Origin: Paracoccaceae bacterium
Lineage (GTDB): Bacteria > Pseudomonadota > Alphaproteobacteria > Rhodobacterales > Rhodobacteraceae
DNA: 64,000 bases
Direction: 5' to 3'
Assembly: GCA_021648025.1 (NCBI GenBank)
Contig: JAKITO010000016.1
Coordinates: 164 to 64,163 of the forward strand
Shown here: one piece after another, positions 34,898 through 64,000 of the stretch
Position numbering within the stretch: the stretch's first letter is position 1
Layout: each line of letters begins with the position of its first letter
The notes under the pieces: generated by a model
Database searches by the model: none
What the model was told of the DNA's origin: nothing
The model's input: the letters and a program-made list of their open reading frames with translations, nothing else
Program-made: the position numbers and the translations under genes

Positions 34898-34983
34898 GAG
34901 TGATCTCCTTTTTTAGGTTTCGACACGTCCACCCAAGGCGATCACGGGCAGAGGTATCGCCGGGTTGGCGATACGATCTGCAC

Positions 34984-35140
34984 GTCCTCTTTCATCCGGA
35001 CTTTAACCGTCGGCTCTGGAGTCTCACCAGATCTGCTGACCAATGGGTTTCCAAAGGAAACCCATTGCGCTCGCGGGCTTGCAGATCAGGTCTGCATACC
35101 GCCGGTGGGGAATTTCACCCCGCCCTGAGAACAGGAAGAA
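34984..35140 (-). promoter_or_regulatory. FMN riboswitch (RFN element) aptamer
   Basis: The minus strand reads ..CAGGGCGGGGTGAAATTCCCCACCGGCGGTA..AGCCCGCGAGCG..GGTCAGCAGATCTGGTGAGACTCCAGAGCCGACGGTTAAAGTCCGGATGAAAGAGGAC, matching all conserved RFN blocks. An expression platform with the GTATCGCC..GGCGATAC hairpin and the AAGGAG RBS follows, leading to the ribH ATG. Confidence 0.9.
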
Positions 35141-41923: not shown

Positions 41924-41999
41924 GGGCCGTTAGCTCAGTTGGTAGAGCAACTGACTTTTAATCAGTAGGTCGTTGGTTCGAACCCAACACGGCTCACCA
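41924..41999 (+). tRNA. tRNA-Lys (anticodon UUU)
   Basis: GGGCCGTTAGCTCAGTTGGTAGAGCAACTGACTTTTAATCAGTAGGTCGTTGGTTCGAACCCAACACGGCTCACCA folds by hand into a cloverleaf. It has a 7-bp acceptor stem, an anticodon loop CTTTTAA, a TTCGAAC T-loop and an encoded CCA. Confidence 0.95.
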
Positions 42000-52269: not shown

Positions 52270-54579
52270 ATGACACAGAATGATCCACTGACCAGCAGCC
52301 ACTGGGGCACCTACCGGGTTCAGGTTGAAAACGGTCGTGTCACCGGCCTGCGCGGATTTGAGGCCGACCCTGACCCGTCACCCATCGGCAACGGCATCAT
52401 TGATGTACTGGACGGGCCAACCCGGATTAAAACCCCAATGGTGCGCGAAAGTTGGCTAAGGCATGGGCCGGGAAGTGCAACGCACCTGCGCGGTGACGAC
52501 GCCTTTGTTGCGGTCAGCTGGGACAAGGCCGAAGCGCTGGTCGCGACCGAACTTGACCGCGTACGGGCCGAGTTTGGCAACCAAGCGATCTATGGCGGCT
52601 CTTATGGCTGGGGCAGTGCCGGACGGTTCCATCACGCGCAAAGCCAACTGCACCGGTTTCTCAACTGCATCGGCGGCTATACAAGGTCAGTCAACACCTA
52701 CAGCCACGCAGCGGGCGAAGTGATCCTACCGCATGTTCTGGGGGATTTCGCGGGGTTGATACATAAGCAGACCAGTTGGCAATCCATCATCGACACCACC
52801 CAATTACTGGTGGGTTTTGGCGGAGTTCCGACCCGCAATGCACAGATCAGTGCGGGCGGCACCGGGAGGCACCGCACCCGCGAGGCGTTGATGCAAGCCC
52901 GCGCTGCCGGGGTGGAGTTCGTCAATATCTCGCCCTTGCGCGGTGATATGGACGCCGGTTTGAAGGCCGACTGGCTGGCCCCGCGGCCCGGATCGGATGT
53001 CGCTGTGATGCTGGGACTGGCGCACACACTGCTGGTGGAAAACCTGCATGATCCTGTATTTTTACAGCGTTATGCCATCGGCTTTGACCGTTTCGCCGAC
53101 TATCTGACAGGAAAATCCGATGGGGTTGTGAAATCCGCAGAATGGGCGGCGGCGGTCTCGGGCCTGCCTGCCGCCACTATCCGGGATCTGGCACGGCGCA
53201 TGGCCCGTGCGCGCACCATAATTTCAATCAACTGGGCGCTGACTCGGCAAGAATATGGCGAACAACCGTTCTGGGCCGGGACCGCTCTGGCGGCTATGCT
53301 GGGCCAGATCGGCCTGCCCGGCGGCGGCATTGCCTATGGCTATGGGGCGGCGAATTCCATCGGGCTGGAAACCCACGACGTAAAATTCAGAGCACTTCCG
53401 CAAGGCAAGAACCCAGTTGCCGATTTCATCCCTGTGGCGCGGATCAGTGACATGCTCCTGAACCCTGGCAAAGCCTTTGACTATAATGGCCAAACCGCCA
53501 CCTACCCGGACATCAAACTGGTCTATTGGGCCGGGGGCAATCCGTTTCATCACCATCAGGATCTGGCACGCCTGAAACAGGCCTGGGAAACACCTGATAC
53601 CGTAATTGTCCATGAATGGTGCTGGAACGCGCTGGCCAAACATGCTGATATCGTGCTGCCCTGCACCACGTCGCTGGAGCGGCGCGACCTTATGTTGACC
53701 CCGCGCGACCCCTATATTGTTGCCATGCAGCAGGTAATTGCGCCCGCTGGGGACGCCCGCAATGATTTTGATATCTTCGCCGGAATTTGCAGCAAGATGG
53801 GGGTGGAACAGGATTTTACCGATGGGCGTAGTGCTGAGGAATGGTTGCGCTGGATATATGATCAAAGCCGCCAATCTGCCGCTGAAAACGGCGTAACGCT
53901 GCCGTCTTTGAAGGTGTTGCGGGACAAGGGCTGGCACCGGGTGGAACCTCCTGATCAGCCGCGTGTGATGTTGTCTGAGTTTCGCCGGGATCCCGCGGCC
54001 AACCCGCTGCGCACCCCCAGTGGCAAGATCGAAATATTCTCGCAAACCATCGCCGGGTTTGGCTATGCGGATTGCCCGGGTCATCCCACGTGGCAAGAAC
54101 CGGATGAATGGCTTGGCGCCACCGATAAAGAACACCCGTTGCACCTGATTTCCAATCAACCCAAACACAAACTGCATTCGCAACTTGATCATGGTGCGGT
54201 CAGTCGGGCCGCCAAGATCAATGGGCGTGAACCGGTGGTGATGCATCCTGAAAATGCGGCCAGCCGTGCTATATCTGCGGGCGATCTTGTGCGTGTGTTC
54301 AATGACCGCGGGGCCTGTTTGGCCGTGGCGGTTTTAAGCGATGACATTCGCATGGGCGTGGTACAGATCAGCACCGGGGCATGGTTGGACCCGGAATGGC
54401 TGGCGGACGGATCCTTGTTGTGCCGCCACGGCAATCCAAATGCTTTGACTCGTGACAAGGGCACGTCCAGCCTGGCGCAGGGACCGACTGCGCATTCTTG
54501 TCTGGTCGATGTTGAACGATACAAGGGGGTGCCGCCAACAGTCCGGGCCTTTGAACCACCAAGGATCTTGAGTGGCTGA
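52270..54579 (+). CDS. Cytoplasmic molybdopterin-dependent S-/N-oxide reductase (BisC/TorZ-like, DMSO reductase family)
   Basis: 769 aa with no signal peptide: MTQNDPLTSSHWGTYRVQVENGRVTGLRGFEADPDPSPIG... The length and domain order match the family. Confidence 0.8.
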   Translation: MTQNDPLTSSHWGTYRVQVENGRVTGLRGFEADPDPSPIGNGIIDVLDGPTRIKTPMVRESWLRHGPGSATHLRGDDAFVAVSWDKAEALVATELDRVRAEFGNQAIYGGSYGWGSAGRFHHAQSQLHRFLNCIGGYTRSVNTYSHAAGEVILPHVLGDFAGLIHKQTSWQSIIDTTQLLVGFGGVPTRNAQISAGGTGRHRTREALMQARAAGVEFVNISPLRGDMDAGLKADWLAPRPGSDVAVMLGLAHTLLVENLHDPVFLQRYAIGFDRFADYLTGKSDGVVKSAEWAAAVSGLPAATIRDLARRMARARTIISINWALTRQEYGEQPFWAGTALAAMLGQIGLPGGGIAYGYGAANSIGLETHDVKFRALPQGKNPVADFIPVARISDMLLNPGKAFDYNGQTATYPDIKLVYWAGGNPFHHHQDLARLKQAWETPDTVIVHEWCWNALAKHADIVLPCTTSLERRDLMLTPRDPYIVAMQQVIAPAGDARNDFDIFAGICSKMGVEQDFTDGRSAEEWLRWIYDQSRQSAAENGVTLPSLKVLRDKGWHRVEPPDQPRVMLSEFRRDPAANPLRTPSGKIEIFSQTIAGFGYADCPGHPTWQEPDEWLGATDKEHPLHLISNQPKHKLHSQLDHGAVSRAAKINGREPVVMHPENAASRAISAGDLVRVFNDRGACLAVAVLSDDIRMGVVQISTGAWLDPEWLADGSLLCRHGNPNALTRDKGTSSLAQGPTAHSCLVDVERYKGVPPTVRAFEPPRILSG

Positions 54580-54670
54580 TTTTCACCAACGTCTGACGTC
54601 TTTATGTCACGACCTTCACCGCCACCCTGAACTGGGTTTACCTGAAGCGGTCATTACTGCACTACGCGGC
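54572..54670 (+). pseudogene. Possible 5' stub of an M20-family amidohydrolase gene
   Basis: The GTG at 54572 overlaps the oxidoreductase stop (GTGGCTGA). The first ~25 residues ADFHQRLTSLCHDLHRHPELGLPE resemble the conserved N-terminus (..RR.LH..PEL..E) of M20 amidohydrolases. Similarity then vanishes, and the frame runs antisense into the next gene. Confidence 0.3.
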
Positions 54671-54811
54671 ACCTTTCACTGCCAGACGGCAGCTGAGGAA
54701 AACCCTTCTGCCACCCAGAAAACGTCAGAAAACAATCGGCTTTGGTTGGCTGACCAGCTCCGCATTTTTTGGGGCCATAGCGAAAAGAATGTCGGTAACT
54801 GGCAGCTAGGG

Positions 54812-55315
54812 TCAGGTGAATTGCGCCGGGCGTTTTACGTCGAACATACCCGAGGGCCCTTCAAGCCTGTCAATGAACTCAAAAAGCACCCGCAATTGCA
54901 GCTTTGTGCCGACCTTTAGGAAATTGTCCATCACACGCGGGTCCCAATAGCGGAACAGGACAGGTTGCGCTTGCGTCGGGATCTCGACATAGTTGTAACG
55001 GCGCAACGCGCGGCGCAAGGAAACGATATCGACTGTGGTCTCTATGAAGTAGCCCCAGGGCGCGTTGCCGTATTTTGTGTCGATGGCGGGTTCTAATTCA
55101 GGCACGCGTATCAACTCCACGATCCATGGTCCAACCGCGAGAACCTCCAAATCAAGCTTGGGCGACAAAAGCGGCTGAGCTTCCTCAGCCAGGCGGCCCA
55201 TGACGTGTTCACCCAACAGCGGGGCCTGTGCCAGATCGACCACTGCATAGCGAAATAGGATGGTCGAAAGGGCAGTCTCGATTCTTGGGCTTGTCAGTTT
55301 CTTACGGTTGGACAC
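54812..55315 (-). CDS. DUF4123-family protein (T6SS effector adaptor/chaperone type)
   Basis: 167 aa from a GTG start 11 nt after the upstream stop. It has the family hallmarks ..RYAVVDLAQAP.., ..VGPWIVEL.., ..APWGYFIET...SLRRALRR.. and ..VLFRYWDPRVMDNFL... Confidence 0.75.
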   Translation of the reverse strand: MSNRKKLTSPRIETALSTILFRYAVVDLAQAPLLGEHVMGRLAEEAQPLLSPKLDLEVLAVGPWIVELIRVPELEPAIDTKYGNAPWGYFIETTVDIVSLRRALRRYNYVEIPTQAQPVLFRYWDPRVMDNFLKVGTKLQLRVLFEFIDRLEGPSGMFDVKRPAQFT

Positions 55316-55326
55316 GGTACGATCGA

Positions 55327-55809
55327 CTATTTATTGCACTGCTTGACAAACGGCGCGCCGGACTTTGCCGCTGACAAAAGTGCTTCGACCTGTTTGGCCA
55401 CATCAATAGGTGGCGGCGGCTGGCTTGCGGGTGCTGGGTCTGGGCGCTCGCGAATTTTCATTCCACCTTGCCACGTTTTCTGTGGGCGGCGCTGTGGTGG
55501 AGGTGGTGCGGACGCCTTATCTTTGGATTTGCCGCCACCGCCACCGGCAGAACGACGCGCCTTCAGGAGCAGCTTGCCCTCTGCCATCAGCTTCGCCACG
55601 CCTTTCAACGCATCCCGGTCTTTGAACGCGCGGTCTTTCAATCGTTTGGGGCGCAGCTTGGTCCAGAGCTCAGTGAAATGCTCCATGTTCCTTTTGACCC
55701 TCGACGCCTCTTTTAAAAACGCAAAGGCGGAATCAGCATCTTTATACTCTTGCGGCGCCGCACCTAGGTGTTTGGCGTCAAGCAAAACAACGAGATTCGA
55801 CTGGTTCAC
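55327..55809 (-). CDS. Hypothetical protein (helical N-domain, Gly5/Pro-rich basic linker, short C-terminal module)
   Basis: 160 aa from a GTG start behind AGGA. The linker is ..RRSAGGGGGKSKDKASAPPPPQRRPQKTW...PDPAPASQPPPPID.. and the protein ends ..LLSAAKSGAPFVKQCNK. I recognise no family. Confidence 0.55.
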   Translation of the reverse strand: MNQSNLVVLLDAKHLGAAPQEYKDADSAFAFLKEASRVKRNMEHFTELWTKLRPKRLKDRAFKDRDALKGVAKLMAEGKLLLKARRSAGGGGGKSKDKASAPPPPQRRPQKTWQGGMKIRERPDPAPASQPPPPIDVAKQVEALLSAAKSGAPFVKQCNK

Positions 55810-56042
55810 GGCAAAATCCTAGTTAAAAAACACAATACACTGGGTCTATATCGACATCAAATAAAGCCGATCCTGTGCGAAAACTCAATAGTGATCAATG
55901 ACCAACAAGCCAAAGCACTAATCCAAAACTGTCTCTATTCAAACCGCGCGGCGCAGTTTAGGGTTATTTTCAGTTCGATAAGACGTATAAATCAGCCGTT
56001 TTACAGATTGTGTTGCGTCATCATTTTGAAACTGGAAGTCAG

Positions 56043-57629
56043 ATGGCAATAACCCTCCCTCTTGATCCCGGCGCCACCTCGGCCGCAGATGATGCGTTTT
56101 ATGCGAAGTATCCAGATATGGTGGACGAGAACGGTCAGCGCATTCCACTCGACCCAGATAATCCGGATCATGACGCGATGTGCGCTGATTGGATCGATAT
56201 GTACCAAACGGAGCTGAGCGGACAGGAGGACCCACCAGAAGACGACACGCCCGATGACACGCCCGATGACACGCCCGATGACACGCCCGATGACGGCGAC
56301 ACGGACGATGATTCGCCAGACGACGATGACGGCGACGATGACGTGCCGGGCGGAGATCACCCCGAAGATAATCCCTGTCAGGAGTGCGGTGAAGAAGACG
56401 AAGAGGACATGCCTGAAGAGCCTTCGGTCACCATTCGCATCAGCGTGTTCTTTGACGGCACCGGCAATAACCGCGCCAATGTGGGAACCGAATTTTCCGG
56501 AGCCGGTGAATCCAATGTGTCCAAGATGGAGCGCTGCTGTCGTTCCAGCCATCCTGATTTCGACCATTATGAACCGATCTATATTGAGGGTATCGGGACT
56601 GCAGATGGTGAGGCCGACCACGCGTGGGATTCCGGTACCGGATTGGGTGATACAGGTGTGGTCGCCAAAGTAGATCGCGGCATAGAACTGTTGCTGCAAG
56701 CCGTGGACAGCTTTGGTGTGGGCGAGCCTGTGACAAAATTCTGCATCGACGCCAGTGGCTTTAGCCGAGGCTCGGCGGCTGCGCGCAATTTCATCTGGCG
56801 CATGATGAACGAAACGGGATTGACGCTGCAGGAACGCGTCAGCGGGCGCATCGATCTTCAATGCGACATTGAAGTAGAGTTTATTGGCCTCTTTGACACC
56901 GTATCGTCCTATGGCATGAATCACGAAAACGATGTCAGAGAGCTTAACCTCGACGGCATTTATATGGCCGATACGATTGTCCAAATTGCCGCCGCAGAAG
57001 AGCACAGGAAGAATTTCCAGCTCACAACCATTCGTTCGGGCACGCAGATATTTGTGCCGGGTGTGCATTCTGATGTTGGCGGAGGCTATGCAGTTGGCGA
57101 GCGCGAGACCGACCACCAGCTGGTCGATATCGACGTCATGTGGTCGGGCGATGAGGAAAATGCTATGTTTGTCCGCGAACGTCAATGGTTTGAGGAGCGT
57201 GGCTGGTTCGATGATGGCGAAATCCAGGAGGTCGATAGCTGGAATCAACTAAAGGGTACACGCGGCCCGCTCACCAATTTTTACAGTCGGATTCCTCTGC
57301 ACCTGATGGTAGAGCGCGCGCGCCCCGCCGGTATCCCCTTTCTTGGAACGATCCATGACGGCGACTGCACCATCAACTCGGTCACGGATGCGGGGCAGAA
57401 ATCTGTGCTGACCCGCGCGAATGCTGAAATCCGAGCGGCCATCGGCACCAACAAATGCAGAGTGGCCTCGGGCTGGTTGAATTCCACCGATGAATGGCAC
57501 AGAGCGCTGCGGCACGAACATTTGCACCTGTCCGCGCGGTACGGTGACAGCGCAGGCGCACATCAGCCGAACTGGTCGACAGGGGATCCGATAGTTGGTG
57601 CGCGCGTCCGAGGAACAAACATTGGATAA
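56043..57629 (+). CDS. Tle1-like alpha/beta-hydrolase (DUF2235) putative phospholipase effector with an acidic repeat linker
   Basis: 528 aa from ATG 56043, behind GGAAG (the track start at 56010 is a GTG). It has the DUF2235/Tle1 motifs VFFDGTGNN, nucleophile elbow SGFSRGSAAAR (GxSxG), GLFDTVSS and PGVHSDVGGGY. Confidence 0.8.
   Translation: MAITLPLDPGATSAADDAFYAKYPDMVDENGQRIPLDPDNPDHDAMCADWIDMYQTELSGQEDPPEDDTPDDTPDDTPDDTPDDGDTDDDSPDDDDGDDDVPGGDHPEDNPCQECGEEDEEDMPEEPSVTIRISVFFDGTGNNRANVGTEFSGAGESNVSKMERCCRSSHPDFDHYEPIYIEGIGTADGEADHAWDSGTGLGDTGVVAKVDRGIELLLQAVDSFGVGEPVTKFCIDASGFSRGSAAARNFIWRMMNETGLTLQERVSGRIDLQCDIEVEFIGLFDTVSSYGMNHENDVRELNLDGIYMADTIVQIAAAEEHRKNFQLTTIRSGTQIFVPGVHSDVGGGYAVGERETDHQLVDIDVMWSGDEENAMFVRERQWFEERGWFDDGEIQEVDSWNQLKGTRGPLTNFYSRIPLHLMVERARPAGIPFLGTIHDGDCTINSVTDAGQKSVLTRANAEIRAAIGTNKCRVASGWLNSTDEWHRALRHEHLHLSARYGDSAGAHQPNWSTGDPIVGARVRGTNIG
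56244..56291 (+). repeat. Perfect 4 x 12-nt in-frame tandem repeat
   Basis: GACACGCCCGAT x4 encodes (DTPD)4 inside the effector's acidic linker. Confidence 0.95.
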
Positions 57630-58653
57630 GCGCTTCAAAGCCGTCCTTGCCGTGGGCTTGTTTGTCACGACGGCCTTGATCTTGATAACGTCAATATTGA
57701 TCGCATTTGAGGATTCGAACGACATGACTGAAGTCTATTGGACCCCCGCCATTTCTGCCCATGAAGCCTATCCCGCGGAACTTTTGCTTGGCAGCTTCGA
57801 GGACGCGAACGGAAACAAGATTGACTTGAGGGCTGGCAAGCCCATTAACTCGGGCTGGGGGTCAGCAACTGGCCTTGCAGATATTGGCCCGGCGGTCAAA
57901 GCTCTGCCAATCTACCTCGACCTTCAGTATTTCTCTTACGCCGAAGATAAATTCTATGGCCGCAAACTGGACTTGTCCACGGTTGAATTGACAAAGCTAT
58001 TCGAGGCCGGGTTCGCCAACCAGAGATCCGGAAAGCAGGGCCAGTACGATACTCTTATCGTCGGGCTTGGGGCGGGAGGGAATGTCTCTCTTTGGGTGGC
58101 CGGAGACCGCCATGTTCACCAGGTGAGCACCTTCGAGGTCCCGCAAATAGATGTCGCGTGGGAGGATTTTCGTCCGTCTTCGCTGCATACTCGACCGGAT
58201 TTTATTAAGATGGTCATGTCTGATCTGGATTATAGCGGAAATGCGCAAGACAGCCCGGATCGATTTGCAAAATTCAAACGCCAATATCCTTGGGCCGTCG
58301 AAATTGTCAGTGACGGGCCGGTTGGAGAATTGCGCCTGAATTACCTCAATGGCGAGCGTGACTTTTTCAATTTCATGCGGCCCTTTACCTTCCGAAGCAC
58401 GCTCGGCGCGCCGCTGAACGCGCGTCTCACGTGGTCCGGGACTGACGGTGGTAAATATGTCGCCAATATCACCTTTGACATCGCAGAGACACTGGCCGCG
58501 TATGAAACGCTCGCGGATGGTGGCGCAGGCAAGCTGCGCCTGGAGCTTCGCATTGCTGATACGAACCGAAGCGTGCTTGTGGCGTTACGGGATGACCAGC
58601 GGTTCTACGAATTCGAACAGGCGTCAATCCAGGTGTTCCGGCGCAAGAATTGA
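57595..58653 (+). CDS. Membrane-anchored protein, putative cognate immunity (DUF2931-like motifs)
   Basis: About 343-352 aa. The start is ambiguous (TTG 57595, GTG 57598 or TTG 57622), and all three overlap the effector's 3' end. The N-terminal TM segment is FKAVLAVGLFVTTALILITSILIAF. ..LPIYLDLQYFSYAEDKFY.. and ..LIVGLGAGGNVSLWVAG.. resemble DUF2931 proteins that follow DUF2235 genes, from recollection. Confidence 0.6.
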   Translation: MVRASEEQTLDKRFKAVLAVGLFVTTALILITSILIAFEDSNDMTEVYWTPAISAHEAYPAELLLGSFEDANGNKIDLRAGKPINSGWGSATGLADIGPAVKALPIYLDLQYFSYAEDKFYGRKLDLSTVELTKLFEAGFANQRSGKQGQYDTLIVGLGAGGNVSLWVAGDRHVHQVSTFEVPQIDVAWEDFRPSSLHTRPDFIKMVMSDLDYSGNAQDSPDRFAKFKRQYPWAVEIVSDGPVGELRLNYLNGERDFFNFMRPFTFRSTLGAPLNARLTWSGTDGGKYVANITFDIAETLAAYETLADGGAGKLRLELRIADTNRSVLVALRDDQRFYEFEQASIQVFRRKN

Positions 58654-58659
58654 GCGGTG

Positions 58660-59148
58660 CTAGCGTCTGAACCTGACCCGTTTGAGCGACGGATCCAACC
58701 GTCGCGCCGCATCGAAATTGACAATACGGCGTTCCTCACTCCACCTATTGGCGCGCAAGAGCATCCGCGCATAGCTGCCGGGATCGTCGTCAAACGCCAA
58801 GTCTATCTTCATAAGTGCTAATTTTTGAAAGCTGGCCACAGTCTTGATGTTGTGGGCTTTTGCAAATTTGACGGTGTGTTGTACGTGCTCATCAATCTGC
58901 GCCTCTGACTGTTCCGCCGCCCAAGTGGGTCGTTTTTCCCGCAAAAAAGCAATCGTATCCTGCACAAAGTCGTTGCTGAACGCGTCTGCAAAGGTGCTGA
59001 ATTGGTGAATGTCAAACTTTAGCACCTCAGGCCCTTTCGAGATGTTACTTGGGTTTCTCGCACGCTGTTGATCACGGCAGAACAAAACTCTGTTGAATTC
59101 ACAGGAATGGCTACAAATCGTGTACCGCAAAATTTGATTTCGCGCCAC
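58660..59148 (-). CDS. Hypothetical protein
   Basis: The track ORF is 162 aa from GTG 59148. An internal GTG at 59025, behind AAGGG, would give 121 aa and remove the Cys-rich, non-protein-like N-terminus. The core is FSTFADAFSNDFVQDTIAFLREKRP...HNIKTVASFQKLALMKIDLAFDDDP... Confidence 0.45.
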   Translation of the reverse strand: MARNQILRYTICSHSCEFNRVLFCRDQQRARNPSNISKGPEVLKFDIHQFSTFADAFSNDFVQDTIAFLREKRPTWAAEQSEAQIDEHVQHTVKFAKAHNIKTVASFQKLALMKIDLAFDDDPGSYARMLLRANRWSEERRIVNFDAARRLDPSLKRVRFRR

Positions 59149-59175
59149 GGCTGTGCAGCATTTGATTTCAAAATT

Positions 59176-60156
59176 CTACTTCTTTTTTTGAATTGATTGG
59201 TAGAGATGAACTGCACTGTCGCCATCTATAATGAGACCTTTAATAGCACCGCTTCTCAGAATTGCCATGGTAGCACTAAGTTTCCTGCGGCCAGCCGAAA
59301 GCACGATGGTTTTTGTTCTTGCCAAGAGTGTCAATCCAATAGCGACTATACGGCGATTGAGATCATGATCAACGGTTTTACCATTCTGATCAAAGAAGAT
59401 ACCATTGGTATCACCGACGGCACCTAAGTCGCGTAGGGTTGTGACCTCTTCTTCGCTGATCATATTCTGAGTTCTTAAGAGTGAGGTCTCCGTCAGCTCG
59501 CCAACAGAGACAAATGCGAGGTCAGCCCGTTTGGCAAGCTCCATCGTCTCCGAAATCCCCCTTTGAGAAAGAAACACCTCTCGGTCGCTTTCGCTATCGG
59601 CTATGAAAGGTGCAGGCAAAAAATATCCCTCTGCCCCAGTTGCTTGGGCAATGGCATGAACAACTTCGAAGGGGTTGAAGGAAGAATTGCTGGTCAGTGA
59701 ACCCATCAAGCTAAAAAACTTTGCGTTTGGGGCTGCAATGCCAGACAGGTTTCGGCTGACGTGCTCCAGTGTTCGGCCCCATCCAGTCCCCACGATCAGC
59801 TCTGGGTTTGCTGTCAACCGGTCGCGAAGATACTGTGCGGCAGCCGCCCCGACCATACTGAAGACAATTCGAGCTTCGGTGCTGGCATCTACTTCCGATA
59901 AACCAATTTTTGGGGTTGTAAGGCAGAACTCAAGCCCGAACTCAGCTCGAATTGCCTCTTCTTCAGCAAGAAGGCCAACATCACGTTCATTGATAACAAT
60001 GGAAACTAAGCCGGTATCTCGAGCTTGGGACAACAGCTTGTTTACGCGTGCTCGTGTCAAACCCATGCGTTTAGATGTGGCCTCCTGGTTGAGACCGCCA
60101 ACATAGTAAAGCCAGGCGGCTCGGGTCATTTGTTGGTTATCAGACAACATATTCAT
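59176..60156 (-). CDS. SorC-family sugar-binding transcriptional regulator
   Basis: 326 aa with the N-terminal HTH ..AAWLYYVGGLNQEATSKRMGLTRARVNKLLSQARDTGLVSI.. and a SorC sugar-binding domain. Confidence 0.85.
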   Translation of the reverse strand: MNMLSDNQQMTRAAWLYYVGGLNQEATSKRMGLTRARVNKLLSQARDTGLVSIVINERDVGLLAEEEAIRAEFGLEFCLTTPKIGLSEVDASTEARIVFSMVGAAAAQYLRDRLTANPELIVGTGWGRTLEHVSRNLSGIAAPNAKFFSLMGSLTSNSSFNPFEVVHAIAQATGAEGYFLPAPFIADSESDREVFLSQRGISETMELAKRADLAFVSVGELTETSLLRTQNMISEEEVTTLRDLGAVGDTNGIFFDQNGKTVDHDLNRRIVAIGLTLLARTKTIVLSAGRRKLSATMAILRSGAIKGLIIDGDSAVHLYQSIQKKK

Positions 60157-60307
60157 GACACCTAGAATACCTGTTTGGTCCCGTGATGCAATCTATTGCA
60201 ACGGACAAATGTAACTGAACTGGACATATGTAATTTTTGTAGTTAGGATTTCTCCTAGTCCTTGATGAACATGGGCAAAAACGACTTAACGACTTAGGGA
60301 GGTCACT

Positions 60308-61237
60308 ATGAATAAACTTTCGATCGCGGTTGTTGCCGCAGCGTTGACAATTGGCGCACCAGCTCTTGCTCTAGATATTGCTTGGGTTCAATCCAGCGCT
60401 GCGTCTCAATCAGAACAACGCGTAAAAGCCGGCTTTGAAGCTTGGCTTGCTGAGAGCGGAAACGACTGGAGTATCAGCTATCTCGATTCTCAGGGATCGG
60501 GTGATGCGATTGCATCCAACATTCAAAACGCGACCGCGCGGGGCGTTGACGCTATCGTTGTGACGATGGCCGATCTTCGTGCATCTACTGCGGCGATTTC
60601 CGAAGCTGCCGCTGCCGGAGTCCCAATTTTCTCAGTTGACTCGGGCTTCGTGAAAGGCGCGCTCGTTGATATCACAACCAACAATTGGGCAATGTCGGCA
60701 AACGTTTCACCCTACCTTCTTGACCAGCTCGGTGGTCAAGGTAACATCATTTTCCTACGTATGGCATCGCACCATGGTACGCGCAAACGTAGCGATGTGA
60801 TGGAAGATGTCCTTAGGGAATATGGCGACATTAATGTACTTGCTATGCATGACATCGACATCACGGCCTTCTTTGAGGATACAACCAACCAGATGCAGGA
60901 CTATGTTGTACGCTTTGGTGAAGACATTGACGCGGTTTGGGCACCTTGGGATGAGCCCGCGCAAGCCGCTATCAATGTTTTGAAAGCCGCAGGTCTGACC
61001 GACGTTAAGGTCATCGGCATCGATGGGCACCCGCAAGCTGTTGCAGAAGTCTGCAAAGAAGGCAGCATGATGATCGCAACTGTGTCGCAGCCGTTTGAAG
61101 GCATGGGCGGGCTAGTTGCAGGTTGGATTTCGGACATAGTCGTTGATGGCAAGGATGCCGCATCAGTGATACCGTCCGATACTGTCTACATGGATGCTCC
61201 GCTGGTTACCAAAGAAAACTGCGCAGACTTTATGTAG
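60308..61237 (+). CDS. Sugar ABC transporter substrate-binding protein (RbsB-like)
   Basis: 309 aa behind GGGAGG, with a signal peptide MNKLSIAVVAALTIGAPALA and a periplasmic-binding-protein type I fold. Confidence 0.8.
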   Translation: MNKLSIAVVAAALTIGAPALALDIAWVQSSAASQSEQRVKAGFEAWLAESGNDWSISYLDSQGSGDAIASNIQNATARGVDAIVVTMADLRASTAAISEAAAAGVPIFSVDSGFVKGALVDITTNNWAMSANVSPYLLDQLGGQGNIIFLRMASHHGTRKRSDVMEDVLREYGDINVLAMHDIDITAFFEDTTNQMQDYVVRFGEDIDAVWAPWDEPAQAAINVLKAAGLTDVKVIGIDGHPQAVAEVCKEGSMMIATVSQPFEGMGGLVAGWISDIVVDGKDAASVIPSDTVYMDAPLVTKENCADFM

Positions 61238-61308
61238 TTCTCCCAGTGGGCGGCGTTAGTCGCGCCGCCTACACCTTCAAGTTTCTTCAGTAAGTGGAGG
61301 CTGGCCCA

Positions 61309-62808
61309 ATGAGTGTAATACTCAGCGATATTGTCATGGATTTTCCAGGCACCCGTGCAATTGATGGTGTTTCGTGTGAAATTCGTCTGGACGAGGTCCA
61401 CGGGCTGATTGGCGAAAACGGCGCCGGCAAGTCGACGTTGATGAGTATTCTGGCGGGTGTTCAGGCGCCTTCGTCAGGTGTGATGCAGCTCGACGGGAAG
61501 CCGCTGGAACTAAAGTCGTCTGGTGATGCGCTTTCGGAAGGAATTGCGCTTGTCAGTCAAGAGGGCAGCCTTGTGCAGTCTCTGTCTGGCGCAGATAATA
61601 TTTTGCTTGGCGACGAGCCGCGGCGCTTTGGATATTTGCGCCAAACGATGCTGAATAGTCGTGCAACAGAACTTATGGCCGAGTGGTTTCCTGATGTTGA
61701 AATTGATCTGAGCATTCCTGTTCAGATGTTGGATATGGCCGACCAAAAGGTCATCGAGATTGTGCGGGCGCTGAGGCGGGATGTGCGCCTGGTGATTCTG
61801 GATGAGCCAACGGCCACGCTTCAGGCGCAGGAAAAAGAACAGCTATGGAGGATTATCCGACGCTTGCCGGAGAGAGGCGTCGGTGTCGTTCTTATTAGCC
61901 ATTTTCTGTCGGAAGTTAAGGAATTATCTGACCGGATCACCGTCCTAAGAGATGGCCGCAAAGTGGCTACGCGAGTAGCCGCGGAAATTGGTATCTCGGA
62001 CATGGTGAATATGATGCTTCAGCGCGGCGTGACTGGCGACGATGAACAGCGAAGCAAGTTTCCTGAGGCTGCCGCGCCTGTACTTTCCGTATCCGACTGG
62101 CGGGTGGGGGCGGTGTCAGTAGATGACTTCTTGATCTGCCCGGGTGAAGTGGTGGGACTTATAGGCCTTACCGGAGCAGGGCACTTTGATTTTGCAAGAT
62201 CGCTTTTTAGTGGATCAGGTCTCACTTCTGGAAATCTGAACTTTGCCGGAAAGAAGATCCCCAAACCGAGGCCTAGGTTAATGCAAAATCTGGGAATGGG
62301 CTTTGTCCCTGACAACCGAATGGAAAATGCTCTGTTGGCTGAGGGCACAATCCGTGAAAATTTATCGCTTGTTCACCCAGAGGCCGGGCTGCGCGCGGGC
62401 CTTCTGAGTCCAATAAAAGAAAAAACGGAGTCCCGAAGAGTAATTGGTGAATTGAACATTCGGGCAAACGGCACAGAGCAGACGATAAAAACACTATCGG
62501 GCGGCAATAAGCAGAAAGTTAGCTTTGGAAAGTGGCTTTATGGAGCAGCCGACCGGTATCGGTTACTGATTTTTATCGAACCCACTGAGGGCGTTGATAT
62601 TGGGGCTAAGCAAGAGATTTACACCCATATCCGAGGCCTCGCAGAGAACGGTGTAGCCGTCATCATTGCATCGTCGGATCTCATGGAAATTGAGAAAATA
62701 ACACACAGAGTTGTACCCTTTTCTGGCGGAAGCCCAGGAAAAGAAATCCAATCAAACGACTATTCGGAGGCGCGATTTATTGCGGCGATGACAGGGGAAA
62801 CAATATGA
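61309..62808 (+). CDS. Sugar ABC transporter ATP-binding protein (two fused ABC domains)
   Basis: About 499 aa from ATG 61309, behind GGAGG. It has Walker A GENGAGKST, Walker B ILDEPT and a degenerate second domain with LSGGNKQK. Confidence 0.85.
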   Translation: MSVILSDIVMDFPGTRAIDGVSCEIRLDEVHGLIGENGAGKSTLMSILAGVQAPSSGVMQLDGKPLELKSSGDALSEGIALVSQEGSLVQSLSGADNILLGDEPRRFGYLRQTMLNSRATELMAEWFPDVEIDLSIPVQMLDMADQKVIEIVRALRRDVRLVILDEPTATLQAQEKEQLWRIIRRLPERGVGVVLISHFLSEVKELSDRITVLRDGRKVATRVAAEIGISDMVNMMLQRGVTGDDEQRSKFPEAAAPVLSVSDWRVGAVSVDDFLICPGEVVGLIGLTGAGHFDFARSLFSGSGLTSGNLNFAGKKIPKPRPRLMQNLGMGFVPDNRMENALLAEGTIRENLSLVHPEAGLRAGLLSPIKEKTESRRVIGELNIRANGTEQTIKTLSGGNKQKVSFGKWLYGAADRYRLLIFIEPTEGVDIGAKQEIYTHIRGLAENGVAVIIASSDLMEIEKITHRVVPFSGGSPGKEIQSNDYSEARFIAAMTGETI

Positions 62809-63779
62809 TAATTGAGACAACGGCAGCACAAAAACCGAAACTGAAGAGTGATTGGCTGTTGCGATACTCAACGCTGATCGTTTTAGGGGCGATGTTCCTG
62901 GGGTTTTCACTCTTCGTGGATCGGTTTCTAACCGTTGTTAATTTGGCGAATATTATGCAACAGATCTCCATCCTGGGGATCGTTGGCGCCGGACTGACAT
63001 TTGGTTTTGCGGCCAAGGAAATCGATTTGTCTGTCGGTTTCACTCTGGGCTTGGCGGGAATATTGACGCCATTATTGCTGGTCAACGACTATGGTTTGCT
63101 TGTTGCATTTACAGCATCGATCAGTGCCGGACTATTGGTTGGTTTGGCCAATGGGCTTCTTGTCACAAAAGTAGGCATACCGTCGCTGATCACCACGCTC
63201 GCGATGGGTTCGATATTATACGGCGTCAACTTCTCCATCACAGGGGGGCGCGCAATCTATGGGGGGTTGCCAGAAGCCTATACGTGGTTAGGTCAAGGGC
63301 GCATTGGGGGCTTTCCGGTGCTTGCGTTTTTCATGTTGGGCGCCGTTGGGATCGCATGGGTTGCAATGGAGCGGACGGTGTTTGGCAGGTATATTTATGC
63401 CGTTGGCGGCAATCAGAAAGCAGCAGAACTTTCAGGTATCAAAGTAGATTTCTACAGAATTGCATCCTTGGTGCTTGTCGCGGTCTTTGCGGCAGTTGCG
63501 GGAATCTTGCTCGCGTCGCGCCTTGGCTCTGGGCAACCAAATGTGGGTGAACGATTTCTTCTTGATGGACTGGCCACAGTCTTTATTGGAATGACGATGT
63601 TCCGACCAGGAACCGCAACCATCCTCGGCACCTTTTGTGGCGCTCTCTTTATCGGAGTTATCAACAATGGGTTGAATTTGATGGGCATGGATACGTTTAT
63701 CCAATCCATGGTCAAGGGCGTCATCATTCTTGTTGCCGTCGCCGTGGTTTCCCGAACAACTAAATTGACCATTATTTAA
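62805..63779 (+). CDS. Sugar ABC transporter permease (RbsC/BPD-2 type)
   Basis: 324 aa and polytopic, with ..GEIDLSVG..-like KEIDLSVGF and ..YIYAVGGNQKAAELSGI... Confidence 0.85.
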   Translation: MIIETTAAQKPKLKSDWLLRYSTLIVLGAMFLGFSLFVDRFLTVVNLANIMQQISILGIVGAGLTFGFAAKEIDLSVGFTLGLAGILTPLLLVNDYGLLVAFTASISAGLLVGLANGLLVTKVGIPSLITTLAMGSILYGVNFSITGGRAIYGGLPEAYTWLGQGRIGGFPVLAFFMLGAVGIAWVAMERTVFGRYIYAVGGNQKAAELSGIKVDFYRIASLVLVAVFAAVAGILLASRLGSGQPNVGERFLLDGLATVFIGMTMFRPGTATILGTFCGALFIGVINNGLNLMGMDTFIQSMVKGVIILVAVAVVSRTTKLTII

Positions 63780-63791
63780 GGCACAAAGCAC

Positions 63792-64000
63792 ATGACCAAA
63801 ACCAACGGCTCCAAGAAGAGCAATTCTGATCTTCTCGGTCATTATACCGAAATGCGCCGCGTGCGGACTTTTGAGGACCGCGTTGGAGAGCTTTATCTAC
63901 GTGGCGCGAGCGCGGGCTCAATGTTGCACCTTTCCATTGGAGAAGAGAGCGCGGCAGTTGGTGTTTGCTCAGCGATGCGCGATGGTGACACGTTTACGAC
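63792..64000 (+). CDS. TPP-dependent dehydrogenase E1 alpha subunit, N-terminal part (runs off the window)
   Basis: Hand translation from ATG 63792 gives MTKTNGSKKSNSDLLGHYTEMRRVRTFEDRVGELYLRGASAGSMLHLSIGEESAAVGVCSAMRDGDTF. This is the typical AcoA/PdhA N-terminus. Confidence 0.7.
   Translation, partial: MTKTNGSKKSNSDLLGHYTEMRRVRTFEDRVGELYLRGASAGSMLHLSIGEESAAVGVCSAMRDGDTFT

Follow-up and report, generated by a model that had tools for sequence, protein, structure and literature searches.

The subject of this work is a five-gene locus at positions 54572-59175 of a 64,000-nucleotide stretch of Paracoccaceae DNA (assembly GCA_021648025.1, contig JAKITO010000016.1, forward-strand positions 164 to 64,163), which is referred to below as the window. 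The locus is probably a self-contained 'super-orphan' type VI secretion system (T6SS) cargo module, one that brings its own docking tail and is served by a T6SS encoded elsewhere. This reading is carried by gene B, which encodes a small free-standing protein with a C-terminal helix-turn-helix (HTH) tail. Sequence comparison supports the homology of this tail with the adaptor-docking tails of the spike proteins VgrG and PAAR, and B is kept next to the gene for a short DUF4123 adaptor (A). The other genes encode a Tle1-family (DUF2235) lipase (C), a DUF2931 protein (D), and a small helical protein (E). The association of a free-standing tail protein with an N-lobe-only adaptor appears to be new and is undescribed in the literature searched; the effector-immunity-adaptor trio is an ordinary new case of a known kind, and the lipase-immunity pair is an unremarkable example from a well-studied family.

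A preliminary description, made from the letters of the window, had proposed an orphan T6SS-style cargo island with a DUF4123 adaptor, a Tle1-like lipase, and a membrane-anchored putative immunity protein. Its observation is confirmed, and its interpretation is supported. All five open reading frames (ORFs) are present at the positions it gave, and the three families that it named for profile searching, DUF4123, DUF2235, and DUF2931, were all matched above their cut-offs.

Protein B and its short DUF4123 adaptor

The N-lobe of DUF4123 adaptors binds the C-terminal HTH of the cognate VgrG, which carries a conserved Cys pair, and the variable helical C-lobe holds the effector (PMC11582642). For Tla1, binding to the final ~20 residues of VgrG4a was also reported (PMC13133936). 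Split adaptors, TecT and co-TecT, are described as well, with TecT binding the C-terminal extension of a PAAR protein (PMC11582642).

The 167-aa product of gene A, correctly recognised beforehand as a DUF4123 protein, matches PF13503 at 60.9 bits in Pfam (cut-off 25.8, residues 23-138). In hhalign comparisons it covers only residues 43-166, the N-lobe, of two-lobe DUF4123 proteins of 267-314 aa (probability 97.4%), and does not have the architecture of a conserved N-lobe followed by a helical effector-binding C-lobe. On these alignments, A is an N-lobe-only, TecT-like adaptor. The gene upstream of A, 11 nt away, encodes neither VgrG nor PAAR, yet its product ends in the docking-tail motif. This is gene B, previously seen as a Gly/Pro-linker protein translationally coupled to the adaptor. 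B does precede A and carries a tail of VgrG/PAAR type, but the two frames are separated rather than overlapping.

Protein B has no match in Pfam, NCBIfam, or PADLOC. It gave no phmmer match to four VgrG, three PAAR, and one DUF4150 references, and carries no gp27/gp5 or PAAR domain. The AF2 model divides it into three parts. The N-domain is mainly helical, is modelled with a predicted local distance difference test score (pLDDT) of 81-88 over residues 21-80, and is conserved family-wide; a hidden Markov model (HMM) of this domain found no match in VgrG islands. The linker has pLDDT below 50 at residues 87-101 and no secondary structure over residues 84-136, with one conserved stretch (IRERPDP / PPPP). 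In the tail, helices are predicted at residues 137-149 and 153-157. The public annotation of this metagenome-assembled genome (MAG), a Rhodobacteraceae MAG whose 65,971-bp contig holds the window and in which B is L3J36_09290, apparently mis-starts the gene, giving 119 aa from Met42 (P0121) against the 160 aa indicated by homologues.

The C-terminus of B, ...QVEALLSAAKSGAPFVKQC, shares its signature with the C-termini of spike proteins whose genes precede DUF4123 genes, namely VgrG of a Rhodobacteraceae plasmid (...GAANAGLPLVEEC), of E. coli (...AAAGSGSMFVAHC), and of Alteromonadaceae (...ALKHAARSGTPFCAQCE), as well as PAAR proteins of Geomonas and Chitinophagaceae. The tail motif occurred within the last 40 residues of 18 of 10,718 six-frame ORFs, 13 of these 18 being B, PAAR, or VgrG. 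An HMM built from B-family tails only, run over 20,070 ORFs, matched a PAAR protein (E 1.4e-9) and two VgrGs (2.9e-7 and 1.7e-3), in each case at the extreme C-terminus.

A phmmer search run exhaustively over 1.84 billion representatives placed B in a family of 28 cluster representatives, nearly all of 150-200 aa and with the same three-part layout. Their tail consensus is D[VI]AQQVxALxxAAxSGxPFCEQCE, and the Cys pair is kept in most relatives. In P0149 (locus L164, 1548-2474), P0155, P0150, and P0145, a single small protein carries 2-4 tandem tails (...AAxSGxPFCEECEK). Two further members depart from the layout: in P0158 the N-domain is apparently doubled, and P0160 (397 aa) contains additional hydrophobic sequence. 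Members with a named source come from Rhodobacteraceae, Sedimentitalea among them, and from Polyangiaceae MAGs; neither B nor E had a tblastn match in 72,556 plasmids. The possibility that B is a decayed vgrG or PAAR fragment was considered and rejected, as its N-domain is conserved across the 28 clusters and the gene is under purifying selection.

B is followed directly by a DUF4123 gene of 160-178 aa in six of seven genomic contexts (the window, L001, L008/L009, L163, L165, and L166), and the pairing is kept down to 36% identity to the window B; only the four-tail P0149, from a contig of 3.9 kb, departs from this. These contexts, covered to 10 kb on either side, showed no VgrG, PAAR, or T6SS core gene. 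The cargo beside B-A differs: it is Tle1 in the window and in L001, and in L008 it consists of unannotated proteins of 1209 and 1038 aa. The latter two, encoded directly upstream of B-A (L008 3119-9892; MAG GCA_965656085.1, contig 56), have no Pfam or PDB sequence match and are candidates for novel cargo. This MAG has its B-A pair on one contig and a C-D-E set on another. In L166 (5531-11968; MAG GCA_964471915.1, 133-kb contig), a two-tail B and a 178-aa DUF4123 gene, again VgrG-less, are divergent, as in the window, from genes for an E-like protein (106 aa), an unannotated protein (950 aa), and a multi-pass membrane protein (401 aa). The L166 set is bordered by genes for M20 peptidases.

From the tail homology and the conserved gene pairing we infer that B would contact A. 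B should also have a second binding partner, because its N-domain and linker motifs are conserved; a spike or some other T6SS component with its gene elsewhere would be the obvious candidate. The pair resembles a loading kit, since B-A cassettes are found beside unrelated cargo and B proteins with 2-4 tails exist. More tentatively, B may found a class of free-standing, sometimes multivalent (1-4 copies) surrogates of VgrG and PAAR tails which, with N-lobe-only adaptors, would form a portable docking kit for unrelated effectors, attaching them to a spike or possibly to another carrier.

The same features can be read differently, in that B might be a decoy or holding factor whose tail fills the adaptor groove and parks the A-effector complex until a real spike tail displaces it, or whose multi-tail forms cluster adaptor-cargo complexes. 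Homology with the spike tails, an N-domain without a recognisable spike-binding fold, the multiplication of tails on one small protein in some relatives, and the consistent separation of B from vgrG would all agree with such a role. We regard it as unlikely, as B-A occupies the place of a vgrG/PAAR-adaptor pair, always in the absence of one, which fits substitution better than competition, and as the conserved N-domain and linker motifs imply a second binding partner.

The lipase, its immunity candidate, and protein E

Gene C matches PF09994 (T6SS_Tle1-like_cat) in two stretches at 70.7 bits (cut-off 27) in the Pfam profile search. Its best match among solved structures is the VgrG-bound Tle1 of enteroaggregative Escherichia coli (EAEC; 6sjl/6ski, E 6e-26). 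The full motif set reported earlier for this 528-aa protein holds, as the blocks FFDGTGNN, GFSRG, GLFDTV, and PGVHSDVGGGY all align to EAEC Tle1 (PGxHSDxGGGY pattern). A total of 1333 homologues were found; Ser241, Asp285, and His342 are invariant in 20 of 20 aligned homologues, and hydropathy indicates no signal peptide-like hydrophobic segment. Judged from its sequence, C belongs to the Tle1-family serine phospholipases and keeps the Ser-Asp-His triad intact, and its activity is predicted accordingly by family membership. In some relatives of the lipase (P0084, P0103), a LysM domain (PF01476) is fused to the Tle1 catalytic domain.

Ahead of the catalytic region, C carries a 58-residue N-domain without a Pfam match, in which L7, D8, D16, Y20, P24, P35, W50, and Y54 are invariant in the homologue alignment. 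Run over the window and loci L001-L008, its HMM matched only the lipases of an orphan clade and did not match the giant proteins beside B-A in L008. VgrG-linked relatives lack the domain, their alignment starting only at about residue 100-130. It is followed by the hyper-acidic repeat linker already noted in the preliminary description, with 48% Asp+Glu over 60 residues and a perfect tandem repeat of 12 bp x 4.2 (GACACGCCCGAT) coding for (DTPD)n. The linker differs in length and sequence in every homologue, which suggests rapid repeat expansion and contraction.

Gene D, which overlaps C, matches PF11153 (DUF2931) at 62.2 bits in Pfam (cut-off 22.2). As expected, a membrane anchor is predicted, there being one pronounced hydrophobic helix at the N-terminus (Kyte-Doolittle 19-residue mean 2.55), and there is no lipobox Cys; for these reasons, the DUF2931 domain should face the periplasm. 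The helix would serve as an anchor or as an uncleaved signal, either being periplasm-facing. It was shown experimentally in Aeromonas and Vibrio that DUF2931 proteins are the immunity partners of DUF4123-associated Tle1 lipases (PMC7245790, PMC10395195). By analogy with these characterised Tli proteins, we infer that D would neutralise C.

With regard to protein E, no match was found in Pfam, NCBIfam, or PADLOC, and the AF2 model is a seven-helix bundle of mean pLDDT 70. In a Foldseek search against PDB nothing was found at E <=0.001, the best TM-score belonging to Tap3 (9r8g_B, TM 0.43, E 4.4). Homologues of E accompany C-D in L001, L002, and L003, and also occur in loci that contain a spike gene. 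The order in Geomonas L014 is VgrG, PAAR(tail), short DUF4123, E, E, Tle1, DUF2931; in L013 it is PAAR, DUF4123, E, Tle1, DUF2931; and in Chitinophagaceae L023, L024, and L031 it is PAAR(tail), E, Tle1, DUF2931. By gene position and helical content, E is a candidate co-adaptor of the co-TecT-like type.

A small unannotated protein, called U here, is usually encoded just upstream of the orphan-clade lipases. Its comparison with E by hhalign (E 1.3e-3, probability 18%, full-length and colinear) is suggestive only. The 106-aa protein of L166 is weakly E-like (HMM E 7e-4 in a 10-sequence set), and E, the U proteins, and this protein have a common N-terminal motif, ML.F...Q. Proteins with an E/U-like motif (ML.F..QQ...) also adjoin B-family genes in two short contigs, L163 (3-749, minus strand) and L164 (1165-1548, plus strand), the one in L163 being apparently a tandem duplication.

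Delivery of the cargo

Relatives of the lipase were sought in species-representative genomes. The matches listed comprise at least 80 loci, all at most 41% identical to C, and do not include the N-domain clade or the source genome. Among the matches listed, 77 of 80 loci have DUF2931 adjoining the lipase, 56 of 80 have a VgrG no more than 10 kb from it, and 62 of 80 have VgrG, Hcp, or a PAAR-like protein; B is found in none of the 80. Because of these counts, the lipase-DUF2931 pair is firmly T6SS-affiliated. L035, with the order VgrG(tail), short DUF4123, Tle1, DUF2931, has a spike tail and a short adaptor in one locus. Among annotated plasmids, a T6SS core cluster is present on a Leisingera plasmid and a vgrG island on a Rhodobacteraceae plasmid, and T6SS clusters and vgrG islands of roseobacters are often plasmid-borne (see PMC9113992).

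The proposed course of events is as follows. C would attack membranes from the periplasm of the target cell. D, translationally coupled to C, anchored in the inner membrane, and facing the periplasm, would protect the producer and its kin. For loading, A would act as an N-lobe-only clamp of the TecT type on an HTH tail, with E as the candidate co-adaptor holding the effector. B would give A the tail otherwise found on VgrG or PAAR, and the N-domain of B may attach the A-(E)-C complex to a spike whose gene lies elsewhere in the genome, possibly on a plasmid. As a portable kit, B-A would let orphan effectors join a T6SS without a vgrG of their own.

Several observations weigh against this reading. 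A phmmer search of the six-frame ORFs of the 64-kb window found no homologue of TssA-M, Hcp, VgrG, PAAR, DUF4150, or DUF2169, in agreement with the earlier remark that no vgrG, PAAR, hcp, or T6SS core was in view. The references were TssA, B, C, E, F, G, H, K, L, M, TagH, and Hcp from the Leisingera plasmid and VgrG, PAAR, DUF4150, DUF2169, and DUF4123 from the Rhodobacteraceae plasmid and an E. coli replicon, to which an Hcp1 probe, checked first against annotated hcp genes, was added; the sole match was gene A, through the DUF4123 references. None of the seven B contexts has an adjoining vgrG. The closest, N-domain-bearing relatives of the lipase are all orphan (L002-L007, L095-L097, L010-L012), and no direct genetic link to a spike was seen for this clade. 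The tail of the window B has one of the two typical Cys residues, with Val replacing the first (PFVKQC vs PFCEQC). A Foldseek search of the B N-domain against PDB gave nothing at E <=0.001, and any partner named for this domain is a guess because the fold matches nothing solved. The role proposed for E is derived from gene position and helical content, and hhalign of the E family with four two-lobe DUF4123 proteins gave no significant match to their C-lobes (E >=0.035).

The orphan clade nearest to C is distinguished by the 58-residue N-domain and a variable linker, either acidic or Cys/His-rich, and its members occur as orphan modules with unrelated genes around them. Examples are L002/L003, a mobile-looking island with a resolvase; L004-L007, from a Paracoccaceae MAG; L095/L096, from Piscinibacter sakaiensis; and L097. 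The literature on T6SS in Ideonella/Piscinibacter sakaiensis, a carrier of such a lipase, yielded nothing useful. In L004-L007 (1376-9998), the orphan lipase module follows genes for a 2557-aa H-type lectin-domain protein and a DksA/TraR-type zinc-finger protein, and a DksA-like gene is also near the lipase module in L097.

The distance of these genes from any T6SS could mean that the module works without one, the set having been co-opted for another export route or for an intracellular role. No T6SS gene occurs in the 64 kb, the whole N-domain lipase clade and all B-A cassettes lie away from T6SS genes, and the N-domain and acidic linker of C are missing from VgrG-linked relatives, all of which such a co-option would accommodate. 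It is quite unlikely, however, given that DUF4123, Tle1, DUF2931, the HTH tail, and the E family all have their nearest counterparts in vgrG/PAAR islands. In addition, no alternative secretion genes adjoin the module, C is devoid of a segment resembling a signal peptide, and T6SS effectors are often orphans encoded far from core genes.

Locus layout, surroundings, and significance

The features of the locus are collected in Table 1. The genes form two divergent operons, B-A on the minus strand and C-D on the plus strand, with E on the minus strand, convergent with D and 6 nt away from it. The divergent spacer has 233 bp and a G+C fraction (GC) of 0.40, against 0.57 for the window. A scan for promoters and terminators gave nothing above shuffle expectation, the spacer having one weak sigma-70-like match on the minus strand.

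Table 1. Positions of the features of the five-gene locus within the window.
Feature	Positions	Strand	Remarks
Possible N-terminal remnant of an M20-family amidohydrolase	54572..54649	+	First ~26 codons of the 115-aa ORF 54572-54919
Gene A, short single-lobe TecT-like DUF4123 adaptor, 167 aa	54812..55315	-	PF13503
Gene B, free-standing 'spike-tail' protein, 160 aa	55327..55809	-	N-domain, disordered Gly/Pro linker, C-terminal helix-turn-helix tail
B C-terminal HTH tail, residues 134-160	55330..55410	-	...IDVAKQVEALLSAAKSGAPFVKQCNK; homology to VgrG/PAAR adaptor-docking tails supported
B Gly/Pro-rich linker, residues 86-133	55411..55554	-	Predicted disordered
B N-domain, residues 1-85	55555..55809	-	Strand, three helices, strand (AF2)
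AT-rich divergent spacer between B-A and C-D operons	55810..56042	.	Presumed divergent promoters
Gene C, Tle1-family (DUF2235) phospholipase effector, 528 aa	56043..57629	+	PF09994
C N-terminal 58-residue domain	56043..56216	+	Pattern LDP..A..ADD.FY..P....G.R.PL..P.....W..Y
C hyper-acidic linker	56217..56417	+	Holds 12-bp x 4.2 tandem repeat 56244-56294, (DTPD)n
C catalytic triad codons	56763..57068	+	Ser241 56763-56765 (GFSRG); Asp285 56895-56897 (GLFDTV); His342 57066-57068 (PGVHSD)
Gene D, DUF2931 immunity candidate, 343 aa	57622..58653	+	PF11153; N-terminal transmembrane anchor 57646-57702
Gene E, all-helical protein, 121 aa, candidate co-adaptor	58660..59025	-	Unannotated family

With regard to gene starts, that of C is ATG 56043, an in-frame GTG at 56010 being less likely. 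D most likely starts at TTG 57622, since its 71%-identical homologue in L001 begins exactly there; this start overlaps the C stop by 8 nt, and the alternative is TTG 57595 (352 aa). Both small ORFs of the preliminary description, one of 160 aa and one of 121-162 aa, are real. The second (E) is settled as 121 aa, because homologue alignments and a GAAAGGG ribosome-binding site place its start at GTG 59025. The public MAG annotation, in which E is L3J36_09305, apparently mis-starts this gene too, at 58660-59148, giving 162 aa (P0131).

The claim that the island is of low GC was not borne out: its value, 0.542, lies between those of the left (0.574) and right (0.506) flanks, and only the spacer is AT-rich. 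The compositional outlier is the right flank (59176-64000), where GC at third codon positions is 0.48-0.55 against 0.65-0.79 on the left, and lower than in the island as well; it contains a SorC-family regulator and a sugar ATP-binding cassette (ABC) transporter. The surroundings are otherwise metabolic, as had been stated, with tripartite ATP-independent periplasmic (TRAP) and ABC transporters, a pyridoxal phosphate enzyme, a molybdopterin oxidoreductase, and the SorC-regulated sugar ABC system. Farther away, a flavin mononucleotide riboswitch (RF00050) lies at 34980-35136 on the minus strand (113.7 bits against a gathering score of 66.2). The only tRNA gene of the window is tRNA-Lys(TTT) at 41924-41999 on the plus strand; the kilobase that follows it (42-43 kb) has a GC of 0.524, below its neighbours, and may mark an old site of integration.

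The best evidence of mobility comes from L001, a metagenomic contig whose lipase is 81% identical to C. There the five genes follow one another as in the window, beside a different left neighbour, so the module seems to move as a unit. No direct repeats bracket the island, no integrase was found, and the sole tRNA of the window lies at a distance of 13 kb. When the neighbouring molybdopterin oxidoreductase was used to scan metagenomes, the relatives found were at most 66% identical, their gene order was not shared, and A-E genes were absent. The proposal that the insertion displaced an amidohydrolase gene fared less well. Residues 4-29 of the 115-aa ORF at 54572-54919, which continues antisense into gene A, align to residues 30-55, in the N-terminus, of the M20 enzyme YxeP (1ysj), a best match of 26 residues that is not significant (E 0.36), and the ORF has no Pfam match; a remnant is plausible but weak, the alignment being suggestive only.

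An orphan location beside a possible gene remnant, together with the lack of evidence for a cognate machine from the MAG, might indicate a stranded relic in which delivery is dead and the locus is kept mainly for the protection that D gives against related lipases of neighbours. This is very unlikely in view of the state of the genes. Against the L001 relative, with a synonymous divergence (dS) above 1, the ratio of nonsynonymous to synonymous substitution rates is 0.165 for A, 0.172 for B, 0.10 for C, and 0.10 for E, and all five genes fall within 0.10-0.17. Moreover, the five ORFs are intact, the catalytic triad is invariant, and the gene order is preserved in a second genomic context. By these substitution ratios, all five genes are functional and under purifying selection, not debris.

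In comparison with known systems, the module is close to the Tle1-Tli1 modules of Aeromonas hydrophila (Tle1AH/Tli1-Tli2) and Vibrio cholerae (Tle1Vc/Tli1) (PMC7245790, PMC10395195) and to the EAEC Tle1 (6sjl). They share the same three Pfam families, the same GxSxG/Asp/His motifs, and an immunity gene directly downstream that overlaps the effector gene and encodes a protein predicted to face the periplasm. The window differs in having no upstream vgrG, a single-lobe adaptor on the opposite strand, a lipase with the extra 58-residue N-domain and acidic repeat linker, and a D protein with a predicted transmembrane anchor in place of a lipoprotein or secretory signal and a length about double that of the DUF2931 model. 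In the PAAR4-TecT-co-TecT-TseT system of Pseudomonas aeruginosa, as summarised in PMC11582642, there is likewise an N-lobe-only DUF4123 protein, a partner encoded upstream with a C-terminal extension, and a separate small protein beside the effector, comparable to E as a candidate co-adaptor; Geomonas and Chitinophagaceae relatives of the window genes show the order PAAR(tail)-DUF4123-E-Tle1. However, the tail-bearing partner B has no PAAR domain, and the cargo is a lipase here and a DNase there. The tail itself resembles the VgrG HTH recognised by Tap6, Tap14, and Tla1 (PMC11582642, PMC13133936), with a linker, a helix, a turn, a short helix, and ...AAxSGxPF(C)xxC, but is carried on a free-standing 160-aa protein instead of a gp27/gp5 spike or PAAR cone, and is repeated 2-4 times in relatives.

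'Super-orphan' T6SS adaptor/effector loci have already been described (bioRxiv 10.1101/2021.10.07.463556). In the portion of that source which was available, they resemble the present locus in having adaptor and effector genes with no T6SS core, the machine being presumed elsewhere; that portion describes no locus-encoded surrogate of a spike tail.

How T6SS effectors encoded far from a spike reach the machine is poorly understood. DUF4123 adaptors need a cognate tail on VgrG or PAAR. If the reading proposed here is true, a small separate protein that supplies the tail would be a simple answer to the loading of orphan effectors, and a tail-surrogate kit would explain the recruitment of 'super-orphan' DUF4123-dependent effectors. 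The tail ...AAxSGxPFCExC on small proteins encoded beside short DUF4123 genes would then also provide a search handle for orphan effectors, useful in marine Alphaproteobacteria, myxobacteria, and other under-studied groups.

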